Notes under the pieces: generated by a model
The model's input: only the letters and a program-made list of their open reading frames with translations
The model's database searches: none
Told to the model about the DNA's origin: nothing
Translations under genes and position numbers: made by a program
Shown: positions 2,996-25,556 of the stretch, piece after piece
Layout of the letters: each line of letters starts with the position of its first letter
How positions within the stretch are numbered: the stretch's first letter is position 1
Origin: a virus
Virus record (IMG/VR): IMGVR_UViG_3300002920_000061
Span: 8,496 to 72,495 of that record
DNA length: 64,000 nt
Direction: 5' to 3' (one strand)

Positions 2996-4387
2996 TTAGG
3001 CTAATTGACCAGTAATGTTATCTAAGATCACATTCTTGCGTGGCTGGTACACTGCCAAGCATAAGAATCGGAAGTGCGCCTCAGGCAAGCTAAGATCGCT
3101 AACAGCGAGCTTAAGTTTGCTGTATGGAGCTAACTGATGTAATGCCATTGTGTCTTTTTGTAAGAGGTAAGCAGTTACGAAACCGGGAGACTTATTGCCT
3201 AGGTCAACAAATACTGGGTTACCAGATCCTTGACGGATACGACCGATAAACTTAACATCATTAGCAGATCCATTTTTATTTGAACGATATACGTTGTAGT
3301 ATTGTGCGCCTGAAACAGCAACGATAGTTAAATTAACTGCGTCACCAGTAGTAGTGACGGTTGCAGAAACAGCAGCAGATATAGCTGATTCGCCACGCAT
3401 ATTAACCGCAGTTACTCGGTATTGGTAAGTACCAGCTTCAAGCAATGATCCAGCACCTGTAGTAATAGTAGGTGTATTAAGAGTAGGAGCAGCAGGGCTG
3501 CCAGCACGACTACGAGCAGGTCTAGTCTTACCAGATAAGAATCTGCTAGGCTCAAGTTGGATTGCCCCTGAAGCAGTCCATTGTTGGCGCAAGCTCGCAC
3601 CTGTAGACTCTTGAGGAGATCCAGCAAGGATGATTCGTTCTTTAGAGTTAGCGATCTTGTTGTAAGTTGATAAACTGATTGGGTCAAGGTGAAGACTATC
3701 AGCAGCACCCATGTTCATAGCAGATCGAACTGCGGCATCTTCAATGATAGATTGAGAAAGACCGCCATTAACTGCTAAAACAACAGATTGGTCAGATCCA
3801 AACTCAGCAAACATTAAATCTTGAGTGTTTGACTGGTCGTCAGATTGACGAATCTGTTGGTCAAGACCAACCATGTTTGGAATTTGCGCAACAGCTAATG
3901 GGTTTCCATCAAACTGTCCAGCGTTTGAGAAGTGAGCCTGACCGTGGAAGATATCAAACTCAATATCGCCTGCTAGTTTTTTAGTAGCGTCTTCAGCAGC
4001 ACGATCTTCAGCTTTAACACCATCAAATGGTGTGATCATGTTGGCAGCTATAGTCACTCGACGAGTAGTGCTGTAGTATGCCATAGGAACAACGGCTCGT
4101 ACATAAGAGCTGGTTTCTTCCTCTCCAATTCCGCCTTCAAACTGAGCAGAACCACCAAAAATTCCGTAGTCAAGTTGTCTGTTGAATTGAATCAACTGAG
4201 ACTTGCTATCTTTTACTGCTAGAGACTTTTGCATTTTAATATGCTGGTCTCCAAAAGTTACGTTATGCATTACTGGAGAGAGGTCTTCAATTTGTAACGC
4301 AGCACCTTGCACCAAAGTACTAGGTGCGGCATTTTGAGAGCCTGCTTCCAATGCTTTCATTAGGGATTGTAAATTTTCTGTAAGCAT
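2996..4387 (-). CDS. Major capsid protein (phage K/A511/SPO1-like, with FN3/Ig-like insertion)
   Basis: 463 aa; QGAALQIEDL, DIEFDIFHG, PAAP..YQYRVTAVN.RGES insertion and LAVYQPRKN C-terminus parallel Herelleviridae-type MCPs; follows an acidic scaffold-like gene. Confidence 0.9.
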   Translation of the reverse strand: MLTENLQSLMKALEAGSQNAAPSTLVQGAALQIEDLSPVMHNVTFGDQHIKMQKSLAVKDSKSQLIQFNRQLDYGIFGGSAQFEGGIGEEETSSYVRAVVPMAYYSTTRRVTIAANMITPFDGVKAEDRAAEDATKKLAGDIEFDIFHGQAHFSNAGQFDGNPLAVAQIPNMVGLDQQIRQSDDQSNTQDLMFAEFGSDQSVVLAVNGGLSQSIIEDAAVRSAMNMGAADSLHLDPISLSTYNKIANSKERIILAGSPQESTGASLRQQWTASGAIQLEPSRFLSGKTRPARSRAGSPAAPTLNTPTITTGAGSLLEAGTYQYRVTAVNMRGESAISAAVSATVTTTGDAVNLTIVAVSGAQYYNVYRSNKNGSANDVKFIGRIRQGSGNPVFVDLGNKSPGFVTAYLLQKDTMALHQLAPYSKLKLAVSDLSLPEAHFRFLCLAVYQPRKNVILDNITGQLA

Positions 4388-4407: not shown

Positions 4408-5181
4408 CTATTTAAGCAGGTGCGCGATTTTGTCGACACCAGCATTGGTTAAATAGAATGAGTTTATTGCCGCTCGGTCTTGAGGTGAAGTTTTGGGATC
4501 TTGGGCTTTTTTTGTCAAGATCGCATCGATCTCAGACTTAGTAAGCTTTTTCTCCACACTTCCCTCCTCAGACTTCTTCACGAACTCAATTTCCGTGATG
4601 GCCTTGCGGACAGGGGCCTGTTTTTTGGTCACATATGTGTTAATTGCAGCAACGAGTCCCTCAATATTCTTTTTAAGAGTTTCGTTTTCTTTCTTAACAC
4701 TTTCTAGCTCAGACTTAAGAAGAGTAGATACGTCGTTTTTAGCAGAGGCTGCTTCAGATTTAGCCATCTGAGTCATCTCTCCACATTTTGCCATCCAGCA
4801 TTTTTCAATGGCGTCTTTGTGAGCTTTTAACTCACCTTTTGACATAGAGCTGTACATCTTGTGCATTTCTTCCATGTCTTCTTCGTCGTATCCATGAGAC
4901 TCATCGTCTTCTTCTTCTTCTTTTTCTTTTTTCTCTTCGTCCTTTTTATCTTCAGTTTCTGACTCTTCTTTTTTCATTTCAGACTCAGCTTCTGATTTAG
5001 ATTCTTCCTTGGACTCTTCTTTTTTCTCTTCTTCTTTTTTCTCTTCTTCCTCGGCCATCTCTTCAGACTTTGCCAAGAGCTGAGCTGCTTCTTGTTCTGA
5101 CTTCAAAAGTTTCATGAACTCAGATTCAAGATCTGCGACCATTGCTTGGAATTCTTCTTTGCTATAGGTCTTTTTTTCCAT
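4408..5181 (-). CDS. Capsid scaffold-like protein
   Basis: Very acidic, coiled-coil, immediately upstream of the MCP; contains seven KSE motifs. Confidence 0.7.
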   Translation of the reverse strand: MEKKTYSKEEFQAMVADLESEFMKLLKSEQEAAQLLAKSEEMAEEEEKKEEEKKEESKEESKSEAESEMKKEESETEDKKDEEKKEKEEEEDDESHGYDEEDMEEMHKMYSSMSKGELKAHKDAIEKCWMAKCGEMTQMAKSEAASAKNDVSTLLKSELESVKKENETLKKNIEGLVAAINTYVTKKQAPVRKAITEIEFVKKSEEGSVEKKLTKSEIDAILTKKAQDPKTSPQDRAAINSFYLTNAGVDKIAHLLK

Positions 5182-6814: not shown

Positions 6815-8245
6815 TTATAATTTCAAAGACCATTTGACCTTACCACAATCCCATATTTTTGAATAGCCTAATGATTTAGCCATTTCTGATTCCGTATTGC
6901 CAATAGCACCTTTTTTCAAAAGATACTTCTTTTGACATGATTGCTTTGATAAGCGTACTGGGTTTCCTAGTTTGAAATATGAATAATCGGGTCCTAACTT
7001 TTCAGGGGTCATGCCTAATTCTCTATAGACGTTCCCCTTAGACCACCTATTGTCAGACCAAGACACTAGATAATCAAAGCCTAATTTGCGTGATTCTATA
7101 ATAATTTGCTTTAAAAGCTTCCCAGTGCCTCCAACAACAGCTTTATCAGCAAAACATACCCTACTCAAAACAGCTTCAGATCTGCTTGGCCTGTGGTGTT
7201 TAGAAATAGTGGCGCAAGCGACAATTTCTCCTTCAAATTCCAAACCTAGGGCAATCAGAAAATTGCACGCACTTTGTAAGTGGTGCTGGTTTAGAAAATC
7301 TATCGCTGTCCTTTTATCTAAAAAGACTGTTTTTGTTTTTCTGGCGTATATTTTAGGCAACAGATTAAGCTTTGCCTTTAAGATAGTTTTTATTTGATTT
7401 TTGCGCTCAAACCATTCGTCTTCAAAAATCGTTATTAGCTGTATGCCATTTTTAGCGCACAAATCATGCTTATCTTTGTGATAATTTTTTCCCTTTTTTT
7501 CTTCGGAATGCCAGTACAATCCGCAATATTCTATTGCAATCTTTTTAGAAGGTATATATATGTCTAGTTCCTGCCCATCTAGGATGGTTCGGTTGTTTTT
7601 TTCAATTTGAAGACCTAAAGATTCAATAAAAAGCGATAGTTCGATCTCTCCCTTAGAGCCAAAAGAAGAGCATCGATAACATTTGTGCCCTTGGTCTAAT
7701 GAATTGTAAGTAGTTTCAAACTCACCATGCTTAGAGCATATAGCAACAAATTTGGTTTTGGTATTTTTTATATTTTGATTATCCTTGATAGTGTAGCCAA
7801 GCTCTTTTGCTTTCTTTAAATAGGCATCGTAACTAAGTTGGTTGGGGTGCCCATTGCGATATCTGCATTTTATGCATCCTGTCGAGTTTCTTAGCTGAAA
7901 AGATGTTTTTTTATGTCTATGGCCACATTGACACGTTACGTCGATTTTCATTTTTTTAGAATGACTTTTCTCGTACTCTTCCTTAGTGGTGTGCACTAAA
8001 AAATGGTTCTTTGCAGCAAGGTCTACTAAAGTGTTGTAGGGTATTTTTTGTAATGCTGCTTTTGCTGCTTTGCAAGAAGGGCAACCGGAATTTCTATGTC
8101 TAAAATTAGACCAGCTGGCTTTGAATTCCCCATGTTTTGTACATAACAACGTTATTTTGTTATCTGGACCTGAGTCTGAGATTAATTTATAGCCACGGCT
8201 TTCTGCAAATATTTGTTTTCTTTCAAAAGAAATTTTTATTCCCAT
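6815..8245 (-). CDS. Second endonuclease-GNAT protein with CxKHGEF zinc-ribbon repeats
   Basis: CTKHGEF..CPSC and CSKHGEF..CYRC; ELDIYIPSKKIAIEYCGLYWH; LITIFEDEW; LSRVCF..GGTGKLL..SWSDNRWSKGNVY; start MGIKIS at 8245. Confidence 0.75.
   Translation of the reverse strand: MGIKISFERKQIFAESRGYKLISDSGPDNKITLLCTKHGEFKASWSNFRHRNSGCPSCKAAKAALQKIPYNTLVDLAAKNHFLVHTTKEEYEKSHSKKMKIDVTCQCGHRHKKTSFQLRNSTGCIKCRYRNGHPNQLSYDAYLKKAKELGYTIKDNQNIKNTKTKFVAICSKHGEFETTYNSLDQGHKCYRCSSFGSKGEIELSLFIESLGLQIEKNNRTILDGQELDIYIPSKKIAIEYCGLYWHSEEKKGKNYHKDKHDLCAKNGIQLITIFEDEWFERKNQIKTILKAKLNLLPKIYARKTKTVFLDKRTAIDFLNQHHLQSACNFLIALGLEFEGEIVACATISKHHRPSRSEAVLSRVCFADKAVVGGTGKLLKQIIIESRKLGFDYLVSWSDNRWSKGNVYRELGMTPEKLGPDYSYFKLGNPVRLSKQSCQKKYLLKKGAIGNTESEMAKSLGYSKIWDCGKVKWSLKL
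6839..6922. repeat. 84-bp dispersed repeat, copy 2
   Basis: 81/84 identical to 1370-1453; a second shared block (7032-7065 vs 1563-1596) is 33/34 identical. Confidence 0.95.
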
Positions 8246-8249
8246 GTAT

Positions 8250-8259
8250 AAAAGATTAT
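8250..8259 (-). promoter_or_regulatory. Late motif ATAATCTTTT, 6 nt before ATG 8245
   Basis: AATCTT-TTATAC-ATG; no Shine-Dalgarno visible. Confidence 0.5.
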
Positions 8260-8273
8260 ATCTTACATGGGCA

Positions 8274-8300
8274 TAAAAATAAAGCCCCAATTAAGGGGCC
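8274..8300 (-). terminator. Intrinsic terminator after the tail tube gene
   Basis: GCCCC/GGGGC stem followed by TTTATTTTT on the minus strand. Confidence 0.75.
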
Positions 8301-8329: not shown

Positions 8330-8776
8330 TTAAGGAAGTGAAGTAGCGCCAGATTCTTCTTGATCACCCGATTCGTCGGTGACCTTCAATCCAACATAAG
8401 TTATTGATATACGAGAAGTCGCACGGGCGTTTACACCTGTGCTGTAACTGTTCGGTATACAACCAGTGGCAGTCATGATAAGCTCACCAGTCTGACGATC
8501 TCGGATAGAGATTGTCACAGGACCTAGATTCAAGAGGTCTTGAAGCTTAGGCATTTTAGGAAGTATGTGAACTCCCTGACCAACAACCCTGAAGCCAGAA
8601 CAGTTAATAGTTACGGCTTCGTAGGAAGTCGGAGCGATCTCGTCTGCGCCGAATCTGCCAAGAATGTGTATAGGTTCAGTACCGATGTTTACTCCGTAGG
8701 AGCAGCTCTCAAATAGCCCTACGACTTGGTTGTCTACGCTAACTACTGCTCTGGGGCCTGTAAGTGTCTTTGCCAT
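8330..8776 (-). CDS. Tail tube protein
   Basis: 148 aa directly after the sheath; VVGLFESCSYG..GTEPIHILG..IMTATGC pattern matches phage K/SPO1-type tubes. Confidence 0.8.
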   Translation of the reverse strand: MAKTLTGPRAVVSVDNQVVGLFESCSYGVNIGTEPIHILGRFGADEIAPTSYEAVTINCSGFRVVGQGVHILPKMPKLQDLLNLGPVTISIRDRQTGELIMTATGCIPNSYSTGVNARATSRISITYVGLKVTDESGDQEESGATSLP

Positions 8777-8793: not shown

Positions 8794-10929
8794 TTATGCA
8801 GTCTGTTGTACTTGGCTAATATCAATAGTTATTGGGATGAAGAATATTGTAGTAGCAAGCTTGATCTCAACTTTAACAGTCATAATTGGACCATTGATAG
8901 TTATGTCTTCATTTTTATAACCAAGAGGAGCATCATCGCTAGAAGCAATAAGTTTCATTCTTCGGTAAATATCCATCTTCTGGGCCAAGAAAGCTAAACC
9001 ATCAGCACGTGTAACATCAGCCAAAGACTTACCAACAAAAGCAGTTTGGTAGCTTTCAGCAAGATCAAGAGCAAGAACGTCAGCAGCATACACAGCTTGT
9101 AGGCTGTTGTAAACAAAGTTTGAATCAATTCCGTATGTAGACTGATCGCTTACCCATTTTACTCCTGCGGTAGAAGATTGTAACAACAGAAGACCAGCAA
9201 GAAGAGCTTGCTCTACATCGCCCGGTGAACCGCTATCAAATCCAGATGGGTCCCGATAGCTGATTACGTTAGCAAGTTTGTTGGTGAATGATTTATAAAA
9301 TCCAGCAGCTTGCATTCCAGCAGCAATACAAGCTGAGTACCAAGGGGCAAAAGTCTTAACCTCGCCCTTAGAATTTACTTGGTCAACATCTTGGAAAGTG
9401 AGGTAGCATCGATAGTGTGCTAACGCAGCAGCTTTTGCTTCAGCGTCAGAATAATTACCTTTATATGATAACATAGCAACTCGATGACGCTTAAGTTTTG
9501 CGGTGCTCATCTTAAGAACGTGGCTTTTAGTGGCAGCGTGAATAGCGTCAATTGTATAAGTAGATAAAGACTCAGTCAAGCCATCAGTAATATCGTCAGA
9601 AGCATTTCGACTGAAAAGAGGTACTACAAAGTTAACAGCAATACCCTCAAGTTTTGTGAGAGCATCAACTATGTCAGCAACCGAAGTAGAACCTTTAGTA
9701 CCACCATTTAAGAAAACAGCAGTAGTCATTGGAGTAGGAAGACCGTCTACATCTGTAGGTGTGAACTCTACAGCAGAGCTTGTTGCAATAGCATCTTTGA
9801 AATTTTTTAAAGATTTTTTAATACGTCCCGGCTTTAAAGAAGCACCAGAAGCGCAGATTCCGATGTTTGTCACCTTATCAAGGTCACGAGGAGACATTTG
9901 AGCACCAAATGTTGTAGCAGAAGCAGAGTATCCGGGTTGTGCTGAGATGTAAGATGCAAGGTCATTCACTGTTGTAAACTGGGTAAGATCGATAGAAAGG
10001 TTAGATCCTGCACCGCCTGTTACAGTAGTAGTAAGTGTATTGCCAGAGATAGAAAGAGTAGCGGTAGTTCCTGCATATCCAATCTCTAGAGCAATCTGAC
10101 CTTTTGCTTCTAATGTCTCGTTTAGGCCAATGTCAGAACGGATAACTGAAACCTCAATTTCTGATTCAGCAGCAGACTTGTAGAGTCCAGCAGTCAAAGA
10201 AAGTGCTGCACTGGTAGAAGATAGGATTTCAAGAGTTTTACCCCAACCTTTTCTATAATTTGAAGGGTCAGGATTTACGGTCAATACGAATGTGTTAGCA
10301 ACAGTGCCAACAGACGCAGAGATGCCAGTAGGCAAAAGAGAGTTAAGCTCAGTGACAAGACCATTAATGTCTGAATGGCTTGTAGCTGTACTGCCAAGAT
10401 TTATAGTGGTGACTGGACCGCCATTCAATCTAAATTCTAATACCGCATTGTTAAGAGCAGTACCAAAAGCAGGTACAACTCCTGATGTAACAGAAGGAGC
10501 GACTTCTAACTGGGTTGCTATCACTTGGTACTTTATCTTGTTCCCATCTTTGCCAAAGTTTTTAGATTTTAAAATTCCGTAGTCTGTATCTACGATTGCT
10601 TGAGCCTTGGTTCCAGCATTGGTCTTAAGGATGTAAACCCTATTAACAGAACCAGTGATATCTGCATCCGCAGAAGGTGCGCTTAATGCACGAAAAGCCT
10701 CAACAATAGGGCCAGCAATGTATTTTTGCTGAACCTGAGAAACCTGATCTGGAGTAAAAAAGTTGTTTTTCAAACTTTCGTTTGCAAAACTTTCTCCACC
10801 ATCAGCCTCACCGATGATTGCAATAACACCAGTGGCCCCAATTCCTACTGGAGTTGATCGAACGTTTTGTTCAAAATAAGCTCCGGGGATAACTGTATTG
10901 ATAAATGATGTAGTAAGTCTGATTGCCAT
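8794..10929 (-). CDS. Tail sheath protein
   Basis: 711 aa; IPGAYFEQ..IAIIGEADGG N-terminus; sheath C-domain AGMQAAG..SFTNK..VKWVSDQST..YNSLQ..FIPITIDI. Confidence 0.9.
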   Translation of the reverse strand: MAIRLTTSFINTVIPGAYFEQNVRSTPVGIGATGVIAIIGEADGGESFANESLKNNFFTPDQVSQVQQKYIAGPIVEAFRALSAPSADADITGSVNRVYILKTNAGTKAQAIVDTDYGILKSKNFGKDGNKIKYQVIATQLEVAPSVTSGVVPAFGTALNNAVLEFRLNGGPVTTINLGSTATSHSDINGLVTELNSLLPTGISASVGTVANTFVLTVNPDPSNYRKGWGKTLEILSSTSAALSLTAGLYKSAAESEIEVSVIRSDIGLNETLEAKGQIALEIGYAGTTATLSISGNTLTTTVTGGAGSNLSIDLTQFTTVNDLASYISAQPGYSASATTFGAQMSPRDLDKVTNIGICASGASLKPGRIKKSLKNFKDAIATSSAVEFTPTDVDGLPTPMTTAVFLNGGTKGSTSVADIVDALTKLEGIAVNFVVPLFSRNASDDITDGLTESLSTYTIDAIHAATKSHVLKMSTAKLKRHRVAMLSYKGNYSDAEAKAAALAHYRCYLTFQDVDQVNSKGEVKTFAPWYSACIAAGMQAAGFYKSFTNKLANVISYRDPSGFDSGSPGDVEQALLAGLLLLQSSTAGVKWVSDQSTYGIDSNFVYNSLQAVYAADVLALDLAESYQTAFVGKSLADVTRADGLAFLAQKMDIYRRMKLIASSDDAPLGYKNEDITINGPIMTVKVEIKLATTIFFIPITIDISQVQQTA

Positions 10930-10942
10930 TTTAGTCTCCTAC

Positions 10943-11245
10943 CTACTTCTTAAGTCCAAAATGTTCTAAACCCTTTTCAAAAAGCTCAGGCTTATCATGC
11001 CCAGATGCCTTTAGATGGGCCCAGATAATGTCCTCAAGGTCTTTTGTTTTTTTATAATCTTTCTTAGCAAGTGCCCAGAAAGCAGCAAAAGCTGCTCTAG
11101 CATCCTGCTGAGAATCCGCAGGTGCTTCAAAATTTGACTGACGAGCCGCTAAAAACTCTGTGTGTTCTTTTTCTAGAGCTTCTCTCACAATCTCCTCTGT
11201 CGTTTTTTTATAAGGGTTTCTCTTTCTTCCCATCTTATTTCTCAT
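10943..11245 (-). CDS. Hypothetical protein (tail/neck module)
   Basis: Coupled between flanking genes in the late operon. Confidence 0.6.
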   Translation of the reverse strand: MRNKMGRKRNPYKKTTEEIVREALEKEHTEFLAARQSNFEAPADSQQDARAAFAAFWALAKKDYKKTKDLEDIIWAHLKASGHDKPELFEKGLEHFGLKK

Positions 11246-11537
11246 TCTTCTTTGCCAGTTTTTTAGCGTGGCATTTTTCTAAAAACTTTTTCAACTGTAA
11301 TGGTTTTTTAGCAATGGCCTTTGGCTGTCCTTCTGTACCTTTAGGCTGCGGAACTTTAATTTCTGCCATCTGAGCTGTGGTTTGATTTCTTGGATCGGCC
11401 TTATCCATCTTATTTTCTTTAACAGCCTCTTTTGTGGACATTTCGGCCTTTTGAAGGTGGTGCTCAGCTAATTCCTTAGCTCGAGCAAGGATGCCTTCTG
11501 CGACCTCTTTTGCTGTGTATTCTTTTTTTCGTTCCAC
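11235..11537 (-). CDS. Small charged protein, candidate internal head protein
   Basis: GTG start with AAGGAG RBS; LQKAE motif and C-terminal KPLQLKKFLEK. Confidence 0.6.
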   Translation of the reverse strand: MERKKEYTAKEVAEGILARAKELAEHHLQKAEMSTKEAVKENKMDKADPRNQTTAQMAEIKVPQPKGTEGQPKAIAKKPLQLKKFLEKCHAKKLAKKNEK

Positions 11538-11604: not shown

Positions 11605-12000
11605 CTATTTTAGTTGTTTTTTTACCTTTTCTTTTTTCTTCAAAGACAAAGTTTCAATAAACATTTTTAGCTTATCAATCCCTTTTTGTCCCATCTTATT
11701 ATCGTATCCTACTTTCTTCATAGAGGGGACTTTAGGGGTCATGCCTAGCTTTGCTTCAGCTTGGGCTTGTTTCTGCTGATGAATTTCTGCTGGAGAGATA
11801 TCCTTATGAAGAACACTTTCTTTTGGCGCTGGTACTTCGCTAGGCGGGGTATTAACTATCATATTGGAGTCATTAATATCCAATGCTATATCATTTGCGG
11901 CCTGTGCTATGCCCTGCTTAGAACCCAAAGCCTTTTTAAAAGCTTTATATAGTGACTTTTTCAAATTCTCATAAGCCATACAGTAAAGATTACCTGCCAT
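11605..12000 (-). CDS. Small basic protein, candidate internal head protein
   Basis: Start either 12000 (TAATG coupling) or 11979 (6 nt after the late motif at 11984-11993); C-terminal IDKLKMFIE. Confidence 0.55.
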   Translation of the reverse strand: MAGNLYCMAYENLKKSLYKAFKKALGSKQGIAQAANDIALDINDSNMIVNTPPSEVPAPKESVLHKDISPAEIHQQKQAQAEAKLGMTPKVPSMKKVGYDNKMGQKGIDKLKMFIETLSLKKKEKVKKQLK

Positions 12001-13007
12001 TAGGTGTTATTCTTCTTATTTCCATCGGTTGTCGTCCATATATCGTTCTCAGTATCCAATGAATCAGGGCTGTCTAGATTAGAATAAATCTTGATCCCTG
12101 AACGAAATCCGCTTTCAGTTTCCTCATCAATTTCAATTGCTTCAATGGTTCTGTAAGGAGTTTTCAGCCAACTATGCTCTACTTGGCCTGTCAGGGTGAT
12201 GTACCTGCTAAACACATTTTCTCCTCCCGGACCATCAAAATTAGGATTCTGTATAAGGTCACTACTACTTACAGAACTTTGCATGAATTGTCTTCCTTCT
12301 AGGAGACTTTCACGATACCTTAAAATTGTATAAAGTACAATCGCGTGCAGCCAAAGCAGGGGCGCTGGATCCCCATGTACATGACAGCCAATAGAATAGG
12401 TTTCTTGAAAAAAGGAATGTTCTCGTCTCGCCTTATAAATTTGATATTTAGGGACTATACCAGCACGAGTAAGGGTAAGGTCAAGGTCTTGTTCAAGACG
12501 GACACCTTCAGTAGTTACTTCTTGGATAATGTACCCGTTGCCAGTGTCTGGATCCACAAGGATTTGACCAGCACGCACACCTCTTTTTTTTATAGTACTA
12601 GGCATAGTAAGTATGCCAGTTGTTGGATCATACGATACAGGAACGAATGGTTTTATAATATAAGGTATTGGCTTACCTATTTGGTTTGGCATCAAAGTTT
12701 CTACTTCAGTAGAAAGATCCCCAAGGTGCTTCATGTCCTCTTTTTCTGAGGATGAACCCAAGGCTATAGTTACACAAGGAAAATGGTCCTTGTCGTTTCT
12801 AAATCTTAAATTTACCTCAATCTTGTTGTTGACAAACCAGTCTTTGGCTGCATCTATTTCTTTTTGGCCATACTTGTTTTTTAATGCAGGTTCTGTTCTG
12901 AAGCTTGCAAAGACATCATCAAGAAGCCATAGGTTTTTTCTCATATCCTCTAAACCTTGGCGGATGGCTTCAGCGATTATGACATCACCAGCAAATATCA
13001 TGAACAA
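12000..13007 (-). CDS. Putative tail completion/terminator protein
   Basis: FPCVTIALGSSSE..FQETYSIGCHVH..VFSRYITLTG pattern of tail-terminator-fold proteins; typical position between neck and sheath; late motif at 13020-13029. Confidence 0.55.
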   Translation of the reverse strand: MFMIFAGDVIIAEAIRQGLEDMRKNLWLLDDVFASFRTEPALKNKYGQKEIDAAKDWFVNNKIEVNLRFRNDKDHFPCVTIALGSSSEKEDMKHLGDLSTEVETLMPNQIGKPIPYIIKPFVPVSYDPTTGILTMPSTIKKRGVRAGQILVDPDTGNGYIIQEVTTEGVRLEQDLDLTLTRAGIVPKYQIYKARREHSFFQETYSIGCHVHGDPAPLLWLHAIVLYTILRYRESLLEGRQFMQSSVSSSDLIQNPNFDGPGGENVFSRYITLTGQVEHSWLKTPYRTIEAIEIDEETESGFRSGIKIYSNLDSPDSLDTENDIWTTTDGNKKNNT

Positions 13008-13034: not shown

Positions 13035-13793
13035 TTATTTTGAATATTTATCCAAGATAGAGGGCAATATTTCATCGTTAAATATCTTTTCTGCCCACTC
13101 TAAAGCTTCATCCATAAACTTTTTTGGCTCTATTCCCGGGTGAATCCATTTTGATCCTTTCATCTTACTACTTACTGTTCTAAATGTCAGGATGTCACGG
13201 CGAATTTTACCAGAGGGCAGTCTTCTTTGATAGATAGTTAAACTATCCAAAGCACCGTGGGATGCTCTTGCACTTGGTTTGGGAGAGTTTATGTCTCTTA
13301 TAGTGTGCAAACGCCCAAGGCGGGGGCTGCCATCAGCATTATATTCAATTTTCTTGTAGGGAATTTTTCTTGCTTTTAGTTCGGCTTTTATCTGGTTAAC
13401 TAACATTAAAGCATTAGCTGAAGTTTGACTTGGCGATTTTCCATGTTCAAATGGTATTGCTTTATACCTAGAGCCATCCTTGGCTATTTTCGCATTCTTT
13501 CGAAGTAGATCCTCAGTCATGTCTCCAGCTTTTCTTCCTTCTTCTAGCCAGAGTGCTGGTTGGTCGAGGCTAACAACCCATATCCCTTGCCCAACCTCTT
13601 GAAATGAAAGATTGTCTAGATATAACTGCCTAGTAGATCGTAGTTTAGATGATGCTAGCTCTTGAGTTTTTGCATAGGTCATAGAAGCTACCTGTTTAAC
13701 CCCTAGGGTTATAGCTTCCTCGACCTGCTTCTTAAGCTCTCCAAACTCTTTAGCAAGAGCTTCGGCGTCTATAAAAAACTTAAGATTGATCAT
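13035..13793 (-). CDS. HK97 gp10-like neck/virion morphogenesis protein
   Basis: N-terminal helices, LWLEEG, C-terminal WIHPGIEPKKFMDEAL. Confidence 0.6.
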   Translation of the reverse strand: MINLKFFIDAEALAKEFGELKKQVEEAITLGVKQVASMTYAKTQELASSKLRSTRQLYLDNLSFQEVGQGIWVVSLDQPALWLEEGRKAGDMTEDLLRKNAKIAKDGSRYKAIPFEHGKSPSQTSANALMLVNQIKAELKARKIPYKKIEYNADGSPRLGRLHTIRDINSPKPSARASHGALDSLTIYQRRLPSGKIRRDILTFRTVSSKMKGSKWIHPGIEPKKFMDEALEWAEKIFNDEILPSILDKYSK

Positions 13794-13810: not shown

Positions 13811-14026
13811 TCAGAAGCGATCATGTGTCGCGTCCCCGCTATTATCCAGTGCCAGCCCTATCTTTGCATCTATGTATTTTATTCTTCCAGTTTGGCGATC
13901 TATAATTTTCATTCTTCCATCAGACGTAACTGCGCCAACAGGAAGAGGTTGTTTTGCGACGTGTTTTGTGGTTTGTTTGGCTGGTAGGCGTCGCAGATTT
14001 ATCCCTATCAGCCTTTCTGCTTTGGG
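13811..14026 (-). CDS. -1 frame extension of the mCpol-like gene (69 new aa after LPK)
   Basis: Open -1 frame from CCC AAA at 14026 to TGA at 13813-13811: AERLIGINLRRLPAKQTTKHVAKQPLPVGAVTSDGRMKIIDRQTGRIKYIDAKIGLALDNSGDATHDRF. Only an internal ATG; fills the 214-bp gap to the next gene. Confidence 0.7.
   Translation of the reverse strand, partial: PKAERLIGINLRRLPAKQTTKHVAKQPLPVGAVTSDGRMKIIDRQTGRIKYIDAKIGLALDNSGDATHDRF
13955..14026 (-). other. Candidate -1 programmed ribosomal frameshift signal (slippery heptamer plus H-type pseudoknot)
   Basis: C CCA AAG (14026-14020), 6-nt spacer, S1 GGCUGAUAGG/CCUACCAGCC (9/10 pairs), S2 UGCGACG/CGUCGCA (7/7), 17-nt A/C-only loop 3. Confidence 0.8.
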
Positions 14027-15069
14027 AGAATCTCCTGCTCCTTACCCTTATGATGCTCAGAGTCGTTCCCAGAAGGCACATAAATTACTTCTTTCTCCTC
14101 TTCCTCAGAAGAGACCCCTTCAGGGCTAATCATTTTAGCCAGCTCAATCATGTTGTAAAGCAGACCAAGAATAGCGGCATAAAGCTCAGGCTTTGTTTCT
14201 TTAATCTGGTCCATTAAATCCTTATTTTGTTTAAACGCATCTAAGTTTGCAGCAATCCTTTGTAGAATTTCCTCGTTCCCATCAGTATCAGCTAGATCAG
14301 CATCCAAGCTGTCTTCTTCTGTGGCCATCTCTGGGTCTACTTTCTCTGTATTTTGGTCCTCTAGATTTTCATCTAGAGCTTCTTCGCCTTCAAGGGCAAT
14401 AGAGGGTTCTTGTTCAAATTCAGAAGGTTTTTCCTGTTGTTGTTCTTTATCATCTTCTTCTTGTTCTTCTTCTAACATTTCTTCATATGGCATATGATCT
14501 TCTGAAATGAAATCTTCAGGCTTCTGAATCATATCCTCTAGTGAAGTCTCATGAGCTTTAGGGTGTTCACTAGACATATCTTGATTTTCATGGTTTTGTT
14601 CATAAGACATGGTGGCCTCAATATAATGCTCATCCATTTTCTTTTGCTCTTCATCAGCAGACCCATCATGCACTTCTTGGTGAGTTCGATTAATAATGTC
14701 CTCCACAGAATGATCGTATCGAACAACTCGGTCTTTTCCTGTAATTTTTGCTACAATCAAAGCTTTTCCAGCTTGGCTTAAACTGTCTCCTAGACCAATA
14801 GAGATTGTATTATTGGTTAATTGAAGATATTTAGCTCTCAAATCTTCAATTTGATCTATAAAAGATTCATCAATCTCCCCAACTATCTCGTCCCCCTCGT
14901 TATTAAAAACCTTTCCAGCAGAATTTTCAATCCATTGGGAGATTAAATTATTTCCATCTCTTATGCGTTTTGACTGAGCGATAAAACCTTCCAAGTCATT
15001 TTGGAGGACTTTTTGTCCAGCCATTGAACCGATATTATCTCCATCTGCAAAAATATAAACTTTACCCAT
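14008..15069 (-). CDS. mCpol-like (minimal CRISPR polymerase, Cas10/GGDEF palm) domain protein with a long acidic tail
   Basis: VYIFADGDNIG..L.ND..NEGDEIV..TISIGLGDSLSQAGKALIVAKITGKD over residues ~1-120, then an Asp/Glu-rich linker and a C-terminal helix. Confidence 0.75.
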   Translation of the reverse strand: MGKVYIFADGDNIGSMAGQKVLQNDLEGFIAQSKRIRDGNNLISQWIENSAGKVFNNEGDEIVGEIDESFIDQIEDLRAKYLQLTNNTISIGLGDSLSQAGKALIVAKITGKDRVVRYDHSVEDIINRTHQEVHDGSADEEQKKMDEHYIEATMSYEQNHENQDMSSEHPKAHETSLEDMIQKPEDFISEDHMPYEEMLEEEQEEDDKEQQQEKPSEFEQEPSIALEGEEALDENLEDQNTEKVDPEMATEEDSLDADLADTDGNEEILQRIAANLDAFKQNKDLMDQIKETKPELYAAILGLLYNMIELAKMISPEGVSSEEEEKEVIYVPSGNDSEHHKGKEQEILPKQKG

Positions 15070-15086
15070 ATTATAAACCTCAATTT

Positions 15087-16070
15087 TTATTTCTTTTTTC
15101 TGTTCCTTTGTTCTCTAAGAATCTCTAGCAACATTTCGATGTTTTCTTTGTCCCATTGCTTAGAAAAGCTCAGTTGTACAGAGTTTTCACTTTTACGAAT
15201 ATGGATCTTTTTGTTCCTATCAGGGCCAAAACAGAGGCATCCATAAAAGCCTTTATCATCGAAGATCTTATTACCACAATCTGGGCAATTTACGGATTCG
15301 CTTTTTTCAATCTTAATTTCATAAGACTGATTCTTAGCTTTTGCTGCCTTTCTATCTAGAAATTGTTTTAATTTTAAAGGCTTCTTTTCAGAAGAAGCCT
15401 TTTGTTCTATAGAAGGCTTTTGTTCTATAGAAGCCTTTTGTTCTATAGAAGGCTTTTGTTCTTCTTCCTTATCTAAATTTTTCTTTTTTTCTAAAGAACT
15501 CAAACTTTCAAGCAGCATCTGAGAAAGTCTCATTCTTACAAGCTCTTCAATAGCTTGTCTTTCTGACAACTTTTCGTCAACTACTTTGGATACTAAGTCT
15601 CGAAGCCTGAGCTTCTCGTCTATAATATCCTGCACTTTATCGAGATCCAAAAGATCGGAATAAGATTGCTTACCTATGCGGTTAAGATCATTTATGTCGT
15701 ATAACTCGAAAGCCGACATAATGACTAGACCGACCCCGGGTAAGGACCGATATTTAAATGAGCTTACAATTTCGCCCTTTTGTCGGATTTCCCCCGAATA
15801 AACATCGTTTGCAAACTTCGTTACATTCAAAAAGGCTTCTGGCTCTATCGGGATTTTGATTTCCTTTCCTTCGTTCTCCTTCATTTCTCCGAGTTCTTTT
15901 TGAAGAAAACTCAGAATTGTTCTTGGTACAATCTGAAGAGCTGTTTTGATTTCTTCAGGGTCTAAGACTGTATTGGTCTTTTTCTTAAACAGCTCTATCT
16001 TGTTCAGCTCCTCAAAGCCGTCTTCTCCTAAAGTCTTTTTAAGAAAAATAACCGCTTGAGGCTTATACAT
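15087..16070 (-). CDS. Head-module protein with C-terminal Zn-finger
   Basis: CPDC..CLC; KSE motifs; KPLKLKQFLDRK; tandem K(P/A)SIEQ repeats. Confidence 0.6.
   Translation of the reverse strand: MYKPQAVIFLKKTLGEDGFEELNKIELFKKKTNTVLDPEEIKTALQIVPRTILSFLQKELGEMKENEGKEIKIPIEPEAFLNVTKFANDVYSGEIRQKGEIVSSFKYRSLPGVGLVIMSAFELYDINDLNRIGKQSYSDLLDLDKVQDIIDEKLRLRDLVSKVVDEKLSERQAIEELVRMRLSQMLLESLSSLEKKKNLDKEEEQKPSIEQKASIEQKPSIEQKASSEKKPLKLKQFLDRKAAKAKNQSYEIKIEKSESVNCPDCGNKIFDDKGFYGCLCFGPDRNKKIHIRKSENSVQLSFSKQWDKENIEMLLEILREQRNRKKK
15393..15462. repeat. 18-bp tandem repeat, about 4 copies (two 36-bp units)
   Basis: AGAAG(C/G)CTTTTGTTCTAT units encoding KPSIEQ/KASIEQ. Confidence 0.95.
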
Positions 16071-16482
16071 AGGTATGCACCCATTCTATAATATTTTGTA
16101 ATTGCTCTTTAGGCTGGGATTTAAAATCTTTTCCCAAAACCTTCACAGTATTTAAGATTTCAAGCTCTGGCCTAGAATAACTAGGGCGTGCCATGTGTTC
16201 TAAGCATTGTGATATCCAGCCGTTTCTGGAAGCTGCATCATAACTTTTAGGCGATCTTTCAAGGCAATCAGAAATACTTGACAATTTAGAAGCTTCATCG
16301 AGAATGCTTTCTTCTGTCCATTTTGGAGGCCTGTTTTTATGGACCATGCGACTTGTGCATTCTTCAAAAATGCCACGACGTTTAGCTAATTCATAAGTCG
16401 TGTTGCTAAATTTAAACCAATCTGATTTAGTAGAATACTTTTTAGCTTCTTTATAAATCGATTGGTTGGTCCAGATCTTCAT
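16063..16482 (-). pseudogene. Truncated homing-endonuclease remnant
   Basis: Two (K/I)WT..SI..EA.K repeats, then SYSRPELEIL (equivalent to SRQEEQV and SKGEIEL in the intact paralogues) and a stop before the nuclease motif. Confidence 0.6.
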
Positions 16483-16486
16483 TATT

Positions 16487-16939
16487 TTAACCTTGTTTTT
16501 GAGATGTGATGTACGTTTCGTCTTCAACAATAAAAGTTAATAATGTTATAGCTGTTGTTTTGATAAACTGTTTGTCGTTAGTTGCTATATAAGTCCAAGC
16601 GTTTGGAGGGCATGGAATGCCAACGTTTCCATTAGAATCGGTGGCACCAGCAGCAAGAGCTGTCATGGTGGGAGAATCTCCGCAGGTTATAGCACCTAAA
16701 ACTGATGAGTTGTTGTATACTGCTATGATTGAACCCTTCCTCACACTACGAGCAGTCGTAGCATCGGTAGTGTAAGAGTTAGTTGCAGCAAGAAAGATTG
16801 GTTTAAGAAAAGGTCCAATATTAAGGTTTTTAAAACCTCCTGATGCCTCATTGTAAGTAAGGTTATTTATATTTGATGGGTCTGTAATGCCACGCCCATC
16901 CATCTGCCTGATTTTATTGTCTGGTTTTATTACGGCCAT
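16487..16939 (-). CDS. Putative virion protein
   Basis: GGGAG RBS and late motif at 16963-16972; small beta-rich, Thr/Ala-rich. Confidence 0.55.
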   Translation of the reverse strand: MAVIKPDNKIRQMDGRGITDPSNINNLTYNEASGGFKNLNIGPFLKPIFLAATNSYTTDATTARSVRKGSIIAVYNNSSVLGAITCGDSPTMTALAAGATDSNGNVGIPCPPNAWTYIATNDKQFIKTTAITLLTFIVEDETYITSQKQG

Positions 16940-18860: not shown

Positions 18861-21044
18861 TTAATAGTCATGATGGTATATTCCAACGATATTCCTCATG
18901 TCCTCATTTGGATGATTAGAGGCAATAAAACCATGATATCCACCTTGCTTAATAAGCTCATGCATCATGTCTATATCCAAAATACCGTTGTTCAACTCAC
19001 GTACCTGTTTTTCGTACCCCATAGGGTCATGACTAATATCATAGATTCTAGCTTCTTCAGGGATCTCTATTACGCATTTTGCACTAGCACCAGAAGCTGC
19101 TATATGTTCAGGCTCGGTTCCAGCAATGTAGTAAAAACTGTGTGGATGAGCAGTGCTCACTATATTCATGCTAGTTTGCTTGTTTTCTTCTTTTTCTTCT
19201 GGTTGTATTTCCAATTCTGCCTTATTCATTTGGCCAAATCTAGTTAAATGCTTAATTTTATCCATCTCACTAGCTGCAAGCTTTTTAGGGGCTAGCTGTT
19301 GGCTATAACGCTGTTGAGCACGTGCTTTTGCTTCCTCAACCTTACCACGCCCACGAAGATTAATTAATGAATCTGGGCTGTTATCTTTAAACCATCCAAC
19401 TGATGGATGGAACTTAAGCGAACCCTCACGGATTTGTTCGACACGCTCCCTTGTTTCAGGAGTCATTAATCTTGATTGTCGATCATAAAATACCTTTTTA
19501 CCTGTTGAATCTTTACCTTCAACAAAACGATAGCCTTCATAGTCAAGTGCCTTTTCATTCTGCTTTACAGGCTTTGTGGCTCTGTTAGCAGGAAGTCCAA
19601 GCTCTCTTCTAATTGGGTTTTCTACAGACATAGGCTGGATTTCCCCATATGTCTTTTTTTGTTGCATATGTCCATATTTCTTCTGAGACTCTCCCCAAAG
19701 CTCATCCATATGTTCTTGAAAGGCCGCAGGATTCATGCCTTCTGGAGCAAGATAAAGATGGGCAAGTTCATGGACAGCCGCATCTGGTGAGGGCTGGGTC
19801 TCAAGTCTTCCTGATCTCCAGTCAGGTTTAGGGTCTGTCCTTTTAATGCCTTTTTTCTTGTATTGCTCAAGAAGTTTTTTCTCTTTACGAACGCCTTCTG
19901 GTGAGAATATATTATAAGCTGGTTGGTTGTCTTTATCTTCTCTTAACTTTCCAGAATTGTCTCGCTTTCCTTCCGCTATTTCCATTGGCATACCAAACTT
20001 TTTTTGAGCGAAGTTTCTGATTTGTTGCATCATTTTTATTCGTTTATCTGACAAGCGAGGGGCATTTGCATCTGTGCCAAATATTTTTCTTCTTTGTTCC
20101 CTGACGTTTTTAGACTTATCTAAATCCTGTTGGGCCATTTTTTCAAGAGCCTCTTCAGCCTTAATCATAGCTCTGGCTGTAAAGTATTTGGCCATTGCTT
20201 CAGCCTCGTTTTTAGACATATTAGGATACTTACTTTGGATAAATTTCAAGAATTTCTCAAAGTTAGGAAGTTTTTTAATATCTTTTTCGATAGATTCTGG
20301 AACAAGGGCCGCCCCACCCATTTTGGCAGAAGGGGCCGTTAGACCAGAGTCTGCGGTAATAGTTTTTTTAACACCATTATAGCTGCTCATTGTAGAGCTA
20401 AGATTTTTATTAGGTTTTGCAACATTTTGAGCTGTTGGCAGTTTTAATTCCCTAACGTTTTCTTTTGACATTCCTACTCCTAGGTTTTCTGACTTTGTAA
20501 AATCTAAAATACTCTCTTTTTTCGAGAACTTAGCAGGGTCGTAAAGTTCGGCCACAGCAACTTTATTGCAGGCCGCAGTGGTGATTGTCACTTTTCTAGC
20601 TAGTGCTCTTGTAATTTCTTGACCTTCTTTGCTAAGTTTTGAACCTTCTATGGAAAAATTGACCACATTTAACCCTGACCGATTTTGTTGTCTGGCTATA
20701 TGGTCATATTTAAGCATGGCGGCAATTTCCTGAGCACCTTTGTGGCCTACACCATCAAATAGCTCGCCCATAACATATACATAAGGTGCTTGGGACTTAT
20801 GCCAAAAATAAAGCTCTTCGGGGGTTTCGCAGTCTTCTTCGCTGAAGATTTTTTTGGCTTTTAAAATTTTCCCCACAATTTGGTCAGGGACTTCGTTTTT
20901 ATGCTCATGATTAAATATTCCATCACGCTCAAGCGATGAGACATCTAAGCCTCTAATTGAAATCCTTTCTCCTGAACTATCTAGATGCTCAGAAGCGGCT
21001 ATTCCGTGAATTAATGTACCTATAGGCTTAAATTTAGGGTCCAT
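18861..21044 (-). CDS. Prohead protease with C-terminal cargo domains (HExxH zincin-like; possible ART-like)
   Basis: IHGIAASEHLDSSGE..FNHEH..FSIEG..ACN protease core (~1-175), then AVHELAHLYL and a final FYY..PE..IYD..DP..GYHG domain; late motif at 21098-21107. Confidence 0.8.
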   Translation of the reverse strand: MDPKFKPIGTLIHGIAASEHLDSSGERISIRGLDVSSLERDGIFNHEHKNEVPDQIVGKILKAKKIFSEEDCETPEELYFWHKSQAPYVYVMGELFDGVGHKGAQEIAAMLKYDHIARQQNRSGLNVVNFSIEGSKLSKEGQEITRALARKVTITTAACNKVAVAELYDPAKFSKKESILDFTKSENLGVGMSKENVRELKLPTAQNVAKPNKNLSSTMSSYNGVKKTITADSGLTAPSAKMGGAALVPESIEKDIKKLPNFEKFLKFIQSKYPNMSKNEAEAMAKYFTARAMIKAEEALEKMAQQDLDKSKNVREQRRKIFGTDANAPRLSDKRIKMMQQIRNFAQKKFGMPMEIAEGKRDNSGKLREDKDNQPAYNIFSPEGVRKEKKLLEQYKKKGIKRTDPKPDWRSGRLETQPSPDAAVHELAHLYLAPEGMNPAAFQEHMDELWGESQKKYGHMQQKKTYGEIQPMSVENPIRRELGLPANRATKPVKQNEKALDYEGYRFVEGKDSTGKKVFYDRQSRLMTPETRERVEQIREGSLKFHPSVGWFKDNSPDSLINLRGRGKVEEAKARAQQRYSQQLAPKKLAASEMDKIKHLTRFGQMNKAELEIQPEEKEENKQTSMNIVSTAHPHSFYYIAGTEPEHIAASGASAKCVIEIPEEARIYDISHDPMGYEKQVRELNNGILDIDMMHELIKQGGYHGFIASNHPNEDMRNIVGIYHHDY

Positions 21045-24159: not shown

Positions 24160-24792
24160 TTAAACATCCAAATCTTTTTCATACTTCCCATCCCAGAAAG
24201 ATGGGTTCGGATTAGGCTGTGTAGAAGGTATAAAAAACCTCTTCTTTGACCTTGGGGCTTTTGTTTGTATATGAACCCAAGTTCCGCCCTTGTGATGCGT
24301 CCAGCAAGGGTGCTCAACATATAGGCCAAGCTCTTTAAGCTTGTGCCGATTAGCCCATACATATTTCCACGTGATTCCAGACTCATCGTCATCTAAATCT
24401 ATAGCAGCTCCTTTAAAGTGCCAACTAGTGGCTGATCCATTCTTAGGGTTGTCTTGAGGTCTTCGATATCCATCGTTGACTTTTTTTGGTAGCTGCTTTG
24501 GCCAAGCGTACCCTTCAAAAAACTTGTTGATCTTATCAACCAACTCCACTATGTTTTTTTGATGCTCTTCAGGCAAATCTTCGAACTTAGCTCTTCCCAT
24601 TAGGATCTCATCGATAGTGACCAATTTATTCACGTTAACCTCAGGTTGATTATGTTTTTCTTCTTCTTCTTTTGGGTGTTCTTTTATTTTATTGGATTCT
24701 GGCATTTTTTCGACAGCTGCAATAGCTTCTGAAGCTGCGGACTGGGAGTTCCCCAAAAACATTTTCATAATCTCAATTATGAACTTAATCAT
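24160..24792 (-). CDS. Peptidase M15-family cell-wall hydrolase (probable endolysin)
   Basis: DGYRRP..SWHFKGAAIDL..WVHIQ zinc-binding pattern. Confidence 0.8.
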   Translation of the reverse strand: MIKFIIEIMKMFLGNSQSAASEAIAAVEKMPESNKIKEHPKEEEEKHNQPEVNVNKLVTIDEILMGRAKFEDLPEEHQKNIVELVDKINKFFEGYAWPKQLPKKVNDGYRRPQDNPKNGSATSWHFKGAAIDLDDDESGITWKYVWANRHKLKELGLYVEHPCWTHHKGGTWVHIQTKAPRSKKRFFIPSTQPNPNPSFWDGKYEKDLDV

Positions 24793-25556
24793 CCCAGTCC
24801 CCTTTGAGCCTTATACTCGTCGTGTCCTTCTCCTATCCATGAAACACGGCCAGCTTTAAATCCAAAGCCGGGAGCAAGGAATGCAAGGCTACACCTACAG
24901 TGTGGATGTAGTCCCGAAATCTTAGGGTTTGATTGCCCCTTTTTATGATAATTAAATCCAATCTCACTTAGTTTCCAAACCCTAGGGGTGATTAGATCAT
25001 CCATTAAATGGAGTCTAATGCATTCACTGCACGTCTTGCCATCTTTTATTACAACATAATAGACATTAGGGTCTTGAACGCCTTGCGAAGTGGCTACTTT
25101 GCCGATCTGTAAAGCCTTGCCCATATTTCTGGCTTTAGTACTTTCGGCTTCAGCTATAGTTTTAAAATGATCTCTGGCCTTGTTTAAAGTTTCATTTATC
25201 AGATTTTTAATATCTGCTGTTGAAGGTGTTTGGTTTTTTAGGTTTTGCTCTTTCACATAGCTATCTATGTTCTCTGTGAGCTGAGCTTTTGTTTTCGCTC
25301 TAAGAGAAGAGATGTATTCCTCTGCTGTGGACAGTAGATTTTTAAGAGCCTCTTTCTCCTGTGGTAAAAGTCTTTCTGATCCTAGAGACTTAAGGAAAAG
25401 ATGAGACAATGTAAGGTCTGGCTTGCTTGTAAAAATTATAGATTTTTTATTCTTTAAAGAAGGAACTTCTCCAATAAGTTGGAGAGACATCCTGTCGAAT
25501 AATTCGTCTACAAGCTCATGTATTTTGTTTTTAGTGGACGAACTGATGCCACGCAT
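24789..25556 (-). CDS. MuF/SPP1 gp7-like head morphogenesis protein
   Basis: IAEAE..D.KTCSEC..GLHPHCRCSL; next to portal; no toxin extension. Confidence 0.85.
   Translation of the reverse strand: MRGISSSTKNKIHELVDELFDRMSLQLIGEVPSLKNKKSIIFTSKPDLTLSHLFLKSLGSERLLPQEKEALKNLLSTAEEYISSLRAKTKAQLTENIDSYVKEQNLKNQTPSTADIKNLINETLNKARDHFKTIAEAESTKARNMGKALQIGKVATSQGVQDPNVYYVVIKDGKTCSECIRLHLMDDLITPRVWKLSEIGFNYHKKGQSNPKISGLHPHCRCSLAFLAPGFGFKAGRVSWIGEGHDEYKAQRGLG

Follow-up and report, generated by a model that had tools for sequence, protein, structure and literature searches.

To our knowledge, the only role so far described for mCpol, a minimal Cas10-like palm domain, is that of constitutive signal synthase in the bacterial Panoptes guard system. 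The Panoptes synthase OptS, known in types I and II, belongs to Pfam family PF18182 and is represented by the solved structures 9mnr, 9pd0 and 9nwn (PMC12657218, PMC12657230, PMC13577387). Nucleotide synthases of other kinds, with GGDEF or RelA/SpoT domains, have been proposed to reach the host in virion-delivered phage polyvalent proteins (Iyer et al. 2017, PMC5512222), a study in which mCpol is not mentioned. Phage-encoded mCpol is likewise unmentioned in the Panoptes papers and reviews PMC12657218, PMC12657230, PMC13577387 and PMC13712596. Here we analyse such a gene, located on the minus strand of a 64-kb stretch of viral DNA (the window) that is part of the 74-kb IMG/VR record IMGVR_UViG_3300002920_000061. 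Its reading frame begins with a true mCpol domain in which both catalytic aspartates are present. This domain is an optional N-terminal payload on a conserved carrier, which is predicted to be completed by a programmed −1 frameshift, and the gene holds a fixed, single-copy slot in the neck/head-completion block of Mx1-like myoviruses.

The open reading frame (ORF) and its N-terminal domains are laid out as follows.

14008-15069, minus strand: zero-frame ORF, the short isoform of 353 residues (mCpol, acidic tether, three-helix domain); 25 close homologs have the same architecture
14716-15069, minus strand: mCpol palm domain, residues 1-118, with catalytic D9/D11 and G59-D60-E61 and conserved K102, K108 and K112; identified by Pfam, the OptS match, Foldseek and conservation in 182 members
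14575-14715, minus strand: two conserved helices, residues 119-165, including the motif ADEEQxKMDEHYI and forming part of the predicted dimer interface; H130, K144 and Y149 invariant in alignment A1, predicted local distance difference test (pLDDT) score >90

The original prediction had read this frame as an mCpol-like synthase with intact acidic metal ligands, citing three motifs, and the analysis bears it out. The frame lies where it was placed, and the motifs are found in the 353-residue protein: VYIFADGDNIG at residues 4-14, GDE at residues 59-61 and SIGLGDSLSQAGKALIVAKITGK at residues 90-112. Pfam mCpol (PF18182) aligns over its entire length (model positions 1-114 of 114) with residues 5-118 at an E-value of 2.4e-15, and the score of 57.4 bits exceeds the gathering cut-off of 26.4 bits. 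The PADLOC model CARF_HEPN_mCpol (PDLC01967) aligns as well, through its mCpol end only. A sequence search with residues 1-160 retrieved solved structures of Panoptes OptS/mCpol, namely chains 9mnr/9pd0 at E 3.4e-5 and 9nwn at E 5e-5. The alignment with OptS has one gap, of a single residue and well past the catalytic motifs, before which the phage residues are numbered three higher; D9, D60 and S33 thus stand opposite Asp6, Asp57 and Ser30, the last of which contacts the nucleobase. Asp6 and Asp57 are the active-site residues of KpOptS (PMC12657218).

Structure prediction gave the same answer. In an AlphaFold2 model of the long isoform described below, built with one X at the frameshift junction and with zero-frame numbering up to residue 350, residues 1-165 have pLDDT >90. 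The best Foldseek match in the PDB is OptS 9pd0, with a template modelling (TM) score of 0.89 by target and a root-mean-square deviation of 2.1 Å; GGDEF domains and then Cas10 (Csm1) rank below it. A palm/mCpol fold is therefore the best match by profile and by structure. The only K-S/K-A dipeptide of the folded part, considered as a protease site, lies in the invariant mCpol motif GKAL and is uninformative on processing. We infer that the N-terminal 165 residues form an mCpol-type nucleotide cyclase that is predicted to be catalytically competent.

The domain belongs to a large viral family. A search with residues 1-125 yielded 729 clusters (50% identity) at E <1e-3, and in most of the 150 clusters listed mCpol lies at the N-terminus of a protein of 350-600 residues. 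Across 182 family members, whose overall identity is 25-45%, D11, D60 and K108 are each kept in 181, K112 in 180 and G59 in 179, while at position 9 there are 149 members with Asp and 31 with Asn; purifying selection on the active site is strong. The residue opposite OptS Asn34 is variable within the phage family, so that no product can be assigned from the sequence and different members may make different ones, a point on which the family departs from OptS.

Modelling also supports a homodimer of the enzyme domain. Two copies of residues 1-165 scored 0.73 by ipSAE, against 0.15 for the best control; among proteins of solved structure, 21 of 30 homodimers and none of 23 single chains scored that high. 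In the model the two copies meet at the active-site face, through residues 14-40, 55-63 and 96-101, and residues 148-155 also take part. OptS itself is a dimer of dimers (PMC12657218); if the phage domain pairs as predicted, a homo-oligomeric state would be a further likeness between the two, next to the fold and the matching residues.

Despite this kinship the gene is not a Panoptes system, because the effector linkage that defines Panoptes was sought and is missing. No adjacent effector of the S-2TM-beta/Cap15 or CARF-TM type is present; both neighbours are conserved virion-block genes, and no 2TM-beta or CARF-TM effector was found in complete relatives. Other differences are that the domain is encoded by a phage and not by a bacterium, and that it is fused to 230-300 residues of tether and carrier within a block of virion genes and made, by prediction, as two frameshift isoforms. 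The 74-kb record has no SAVED, GGDEF or Tad2 domain. Five relatives that are 96-100% complete have no SAVED or Cap15-type (Cap15_CD_rec) nucleotide-receptor domain, a soft negative given that the control genomes were silent for PF18153 and PF18145. Csm6 HEPN is absent from the record and from four near-complete relatives, and in the same five sequences nothing matches the CARF-HEPN part of PDLC01967; PF09659 is the Csm6 HEPN family and not CARF, which was probed only through PDLC01967. The gene was described at the outset as an orphan, and within the families searched it has kept that status. Because the active site is strongly selected and no receptor was found, the sequences suggest that these phages make cyclic nucleotides themselves.

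The remainder of the protein consists of a tether and a carrier, the latter extending beyond the zero-frame stop.

14305-14574, minus strand: hyper-acidic disordered tether, residues 166-255, variable in length and sequence except for the short motif SEFEQEPxIxLEGE; pLDDT 42-51, variable columns in alignment A1
14125-14304, minus strand: conserved three-helix domain, residues 256-315, part of the carrier core, present also in mCpol-less relatives; pLDDT 85-95, conserved in alignments A1, A2 and A4 and in P0170, P0172, P0197 and Mx1
14020-14026, minus strand: slippery heptamer C CCA AAG (Pro349-Lys350), 16 nucleotides (nt) upstream of the zero-frame stop; P349 and K350 unchanged throughout alignment A1
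13979-14013, minus strand: stem-loop 6 nt past the heptamer, GGCUGAUAGG paired with CCUACCAGCC, a likely frameshift stimulator; RNAalifold, 10 loci
13814-14020, minus strand: −1 frame extension of 69 codons with its stop at 13811-13813, a basic, beta-rich C-terminal domain; conserved at the protein level in about 30 loci, pLDDT 91-95

A programmed −1 frameshift at C CCA AAG is predicted to yield two isoforms. Five observations lead to this prediction: a conserved heptamer, protein-level conservation of the −1 frame, in-frame fusions in relatives, a narrow window for the shift and a covarying stem. Pro349-Lys350 is invariant in 22 of 22 close homologs even though it lies inside a disordered tail, the second disordered stretch of the protein, which both the model and the alignments place after residue 315. 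About 30 related loci have a heptamer of sequence CCCAAAG, CCCAAAA or AAAAAAG at a distance of 7-22 nt upstream of the stop, and in the 22 related loci that were tabulated it stands at the same place, two of them with the deviating forms AAAAAAT and AAAAAAA. The 69-codon frame, which is part of the long isoform only (about 419 residues in total), fills what would otherwise be an apparent intergenic gap of some 200 nt before the next gene; 27 of its peptides were aligned (alignment A5), with 27-74% identity to the extension of the window. In L020, L021, L022, L037 and Mx1 the extension is fused in frame, and in such loci the downstream gene begins 0-6 nt after the stop, compared with about 200 nt elsewhere. 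On the upstream side of the heptamer the −1 frame extends without a stop for no more than 2-40 codons, which leaves a narrow window for the shift. The stem obtained with RNAalifold comprises 9 pairs, and compensatory double changes occur at 4 of these; the single-sequence fold of the region is not significant (z −1.04), so the stem is backed by the comparative fold only. In the minimum-energy fold a second stem is nested and not pseudoknotted.

Two other accounts of the extension were considered and rejected. It is not an independent small gene, since no start codon precedes its conserved N-terminal motif RLPAKQTT. It is also not a targeting signal common to several cargo proteins, since a hidden Markov model (HMM) of the C-terminal domain has exactly one match per genome in the record and in four near-complete relatives. 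The arrangement resembles the frameshifts of lambda G/GT and Escherichia coli dnaX in its X XXY YYZ heptamer ending in A AAG, its short spacer, its downstream stem and the N-terminus shared by both products. It differs from both in that the gene family and the added domain are unrelated and in that several relatives have the two frames fused into one ORF.

The acidic tail that was predicted for this protein is indeed acidic: in the zero-frame product Asp and Glu make up 25% of residues and the net charge is −56. It is not, on the other hand, a plain tail; it is a tether leading to a folded three-helix domain and then to a 69-residue domain in another frame, which the original coordinates leave out. 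In another clade (L020, L021, L022, L014, P0170, P0172 and P0189) the tether has 3-6 cysteine-rich, zinc-knuckle-like repeats of the DDCPYC type, and the conserved motif GNVSRPxGFxxNTPxDMG replaces SEFEQEP...LEGE; both the repeats and the motif may be partner- or metal-binding elements. With the carrier module, Foldseek against the PDB gave nothing informative (best E 2.3), BFVD held only one uncharacterised uncultured-phage protein, and a wide VIA-align search returned only generic helical hairpins (Z ≤6.3). Profile searches of PDB sequences, PHROGs, Pfam and the ESM Atlas were equally uninformative, and tblastn with the C-terminal module found no match among INPHARED phages.

The three-helix domain and the C-terminal domain together make up the conserved core of the gene. 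A search with the C-terminal module retrieved 38 proteins, 20 of which have no mCpol match. Two of these, P0172 and P0197, occupy exactly the same gene slot in their loci (L052 and L053) and keep the helix and C-terminal domains; no mCpol-like sequence was found in any of the six frames of either locus, with positive controls recovered. In the homolog from Myxococcus phage Mx1 (WNM70340.1) mCpol is recognisable with a family-specific HMM (E 5.6e-14) and sub-threshold in Pfam, and the helix domain and an in-frame C-terminal domain are kept. D9, D60, E61, K102, K108 and K112 have all been lost, and to judge from these residues the domain is catalytically dead. Absence of mCpol from L052 and L053 and its decay in Mx1 imply that the core job of the gene is not nucleotide synthesis. 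Mx1 has in addition a separate 243-residue GGDEF-domain protein (Pfam E 1.3e-9, annotated "nucleotide cyclase"), encoded just upstream of its capsid module (OR576727.2, 17173-17904; L051:174-905), which may be a functional replacement of the dead cyclase; the 74-kb record has no homolog of it.

The payload also varies by addition. In L027 and L040 two inserted GNAT domains separate the helix domain from the C-terminal one. Away from the carrier, mCpol is fused to a NUDIX domain and an S-adenosylmethionine (SAM)-lyase-like domain in L042 and to GNAT in L026, and in L050 it is embedded in a 1992-residue multi-enzyme chain that includes a GGDEF motif. One protein of 3516 residues (P0026) aligned with the mCpol query in 31 separate stretches; either mCpol-like units are repeated in tandem in one giant protein, or the sequence was misassembled.

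CheckV puts the completeness of the record at 46%; near-complete relatives measure 155-176 kb. Among cultured phages the nearest is Mx1, with 55% identity in the major capsid protein. Among INPHARED phages neither megablast with 4 kb of DNA nor tblastn with the whole protein gave a match, and tblastn with residues 1-125 gave only a marginal one, to Mx1 (E 0.8), the phage in which the family-specific HMM later recognised the domain. The literature yielded no genome or virion study of Mx1, and we know of no cultured family member with an active mCpol domain. The genes that define the setting are listed below.

13035-13793, minus strand: downstream gene p252 (phrog_16819), always adjoining the mCpol-carrier gene
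15087-16070, minus strand: upstream gene p327, the conserved left neighbour
12000-13007: tail-terminator-like protein
8794-10929: sheath
8330-8776: tube
4408-5181: acidic scaffold candidate, 257 residues, 26% acidic, directly upstream of the major capsid gene
2996-4387: major capsid protein
24789-25556: MuF-like minor head protein
26158-27978: portal
28977-30896: large terminase
30896-32665, minus strand: GroEL-like chaperonin (phrog_5725, E 4e-76), directly upstream of the large terminase gene

A position among neck and head genes had been proposed for the mCpol gene, and the survey of homolog neighbourhoods agrees: the order p192-p307-p150-p327-[mCpol-carrier gene]-p252-p335-...-sheath-tube is kept in about 40 of 48 loci. 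The gene thus has a fixed single-copy slot in this block, and in most relatives the ATG of p252 overlaps or abuts the stop of the extension. PDB sequence searches with the neighbours p252, p307, p335 and p327 gave no match. The possibility that the mCpol-carrier protein is the head scaffold was rejected, given that a separate ORF of 257 residues upstream of the capsid gene is the candidate for that role.

Several features of the block stand apart from the gene itself. Two large HNH/homing-endonuclease genes (phrog_3339, E 1e-85 to 1e-95) interrupt the structural genes at 1346-2893 and 6815-8290 on the minus strand. Between p150 and p327 lies a 155-residue ORF (phrog_20046; 16063-16530, minus strand) that looks like a mobile insertion, because L002 and L003 have no gene at that position. 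The operon opens with an ORF of 727 residues (18861-21044, minus strand) that has no Pfam or PHROGs match; at this position relatives have proteins of 662-828 residues followed by a DUF6321 gene, and the matching region of Mx1 encodes a 1479-residue "NUDIX hydrolase" and a 619-residue "kinase". This ORF and its counterparts look like polyvalent head-cargo proteins. The neighbour p327 and two small basic proteins (11235-11537 and 11605-12000, both minus strand) have in common a C-terminal motif, KKPLxLKxFLxxxxAKK, looser in the third, which may be a shared docking peptide; p327 also bears a CPDCG...C.C zinc-ribbon-like motif and a KPSIEQKA repeat.

The reading that we favour, with a probability of roughly 0.55 for the composite of enzyme, docking and host target, is that of a cyclase made late, tethered to an assembly intermediate or to the virion, which tampers with host nucleotide signalling. 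By analogy with OptS, the mCpol-type domain would dimerise and make a cyclic di- or oligonucleotide from nucleoside triphosphates. The hyper-acidic flexible tether of about 90 residues would join it to the three-helix domain, and ribosomes slipping by −1 at C CCA AAG would add the basic beta domain of 69 residues. Helix and beta domains would together make up the single-copy carrier, with the cyclase as its optional payload. The carrier would dock the protein onto an assembly intermediate or the virion, and the tethered cyclase would make its signalling nucleotide late in infection or just after delivery to the next host. The product would perturb nucleotide-based signalling or immunity of the host, with no phage-encoded receptor taking part. 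Fusions of mCpol to GNAT, NUDIX and SAM-lyase-like domains in relatives give this proposal its flavour of host manipulation.

Packaging and injection, and a counter-defence that restores or jams cyclic-nucleotide signalling, had been raised as possibilities in the original prediction. Within this proposal, we regard packaging into the virion as about an even bet. Gene position, the relatives of polyvalent type and the putative protease-fusion protein of 727 residues encoded nearby speak for it. Like polyvalent proteins, which are predicted to be delivered with DNA, the gene product joins a nucleotide-signal synthase to other domains among virion genes, and its relatives add GNAT, NUDIX and SAM-lyase-like domains; unlike them, its partner is a conserved single-copy carrier with a frameshift of its own, where theirs would be MuF, a portal or a giant chain of many enzymes. 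A similar comparison can be drawn with T4 Alt and other capsid-packaged host-modifying enzymes, which are likewise made late with structural proteins and invite the idea of early action after injection. The 353-residue protein differs from T4 Alt in being strongly acidic and in having no T4-type capsid-targeting sequence, and its packaging is putative. A more specific form of the proposal, which we hold to be doubtful, is that the long isoform anchors the cyclase in or on the virion. The enzyme would then enter the next host with the DNA and, ahead of all phage gene expression, flood the cell with a cyclic nucleotide that acts as decoy or antagonist, silencing Panoptes-type guards or jamming receptors of type III systems or of the cyclic-oligonucleotide-based antiphage signalling system (CBASS). 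If true, the phage would be the first known case of a virus that makes an immune second messenger for counter-defence.

A number of considerations weigh against a tethered, host-directed cyclase. Acidity is typical of scaffolds and assembly chaperones, which stay out of the packaged particle, and assembly chaperones of the lambda G/GT type, with an acidic body and a basic frameshift extension, are absent from virions. A protein as acidic as this one fits poorly beside packaged DNA, and its extreme acidity together with its G/GT-like layout disfavours packaging. Searches of the PDB, BFVD, PHROGs and Pfam turned up no informative relative of the carrier, leaving gene position as the only basis for associating it with the virion, and in some phages the carrier functions without a cyclase. 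The favourable dimer score may reflect the model's memory of solved OptS structures. Finally, in five complete relatives no Tad2-like sponge (PF11195) or 2H phosphodiesterase (PF13563) was found that would make a Panoptes-quenching cyclase useful, Acb1, Acb2, Acb4 and Tad1 not having been searched for; one easy rationale, the topping up of a Panoptes signal depleted by the phage's own sponge, thereby falls away.

The competing explanation that survives best, while still unlikely in our estimate, takes the protein for a frameshifted neck or head-completion chaperone of the G/GT type that is discarded after assembly; its enzyme would act late in infection and solely in the cell that produces it, for instance by silencing a host guard such as Panoptes or by reprogramming physiology until lysis. 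The acidic body with its basic frameshift extension and fixed two-isoform design is what such a chaperone would look like, known G/GT chaperones being built alike, and translation of the extension is coupled to that of the next neck gene. The gene is not, however, located between the tube and tape-measure genes, the usual site of these chaperones, and many relatives make the fused long form only, whereas in G/GT systems the ratio of the two forms matters. We consider it improbable that the protein is purely structural, its mCpol fold serving as a dimerisation knob with no nucleotide signal made. The destroyed active site of a domain that Mx1 nonetheless keeps, and the relatives that do without mCpol altogether, would suit such a role, but dimerisation alone would not demand near-invariant catalytic Asp and Lys residues (181 of 182) at 25-45% identity, and Mx1, the sole phage with a dead domain, is the one with a separate GGDEF-domain gene. 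Equally poor, and speculative, is the prospect of signalling between phages or within the phage programme, in which an unrecognised phage or host receptor would read the product so as to set the timing of lysis or assembly or to keep superinfecting phages out: expression late and together with structural genes accords with it and the lack of any known receptor family leaves room for an unrecognised one, but no candidate receptor gene is linked to the cyclase in any locus examined.

Whether tethered to the virion or to an assembly intermediate, the cyclase proposed here belongs to a large viral family of mCpol proteins, and the frameshifted carrier on which it rides is an uncharacterised core component of virion assembly in Mx1-like phages. 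The optional nature of the payload provides natural controls, in that phages may have mCpol, have a dead copy of it, lack it or combine it with GNAT, NUDIX or SAM-lyase-like domains, and a small soluble domain and a point mutant make the hypothesis directly testable. Synthesis of cyclic nucleotides by phages themselves would be a move in the arms race with their hosts that is absent from the Panoptes papers and reviews consulted (PMC12657218, PMC12657230, PMC13577387, PMC13712596).

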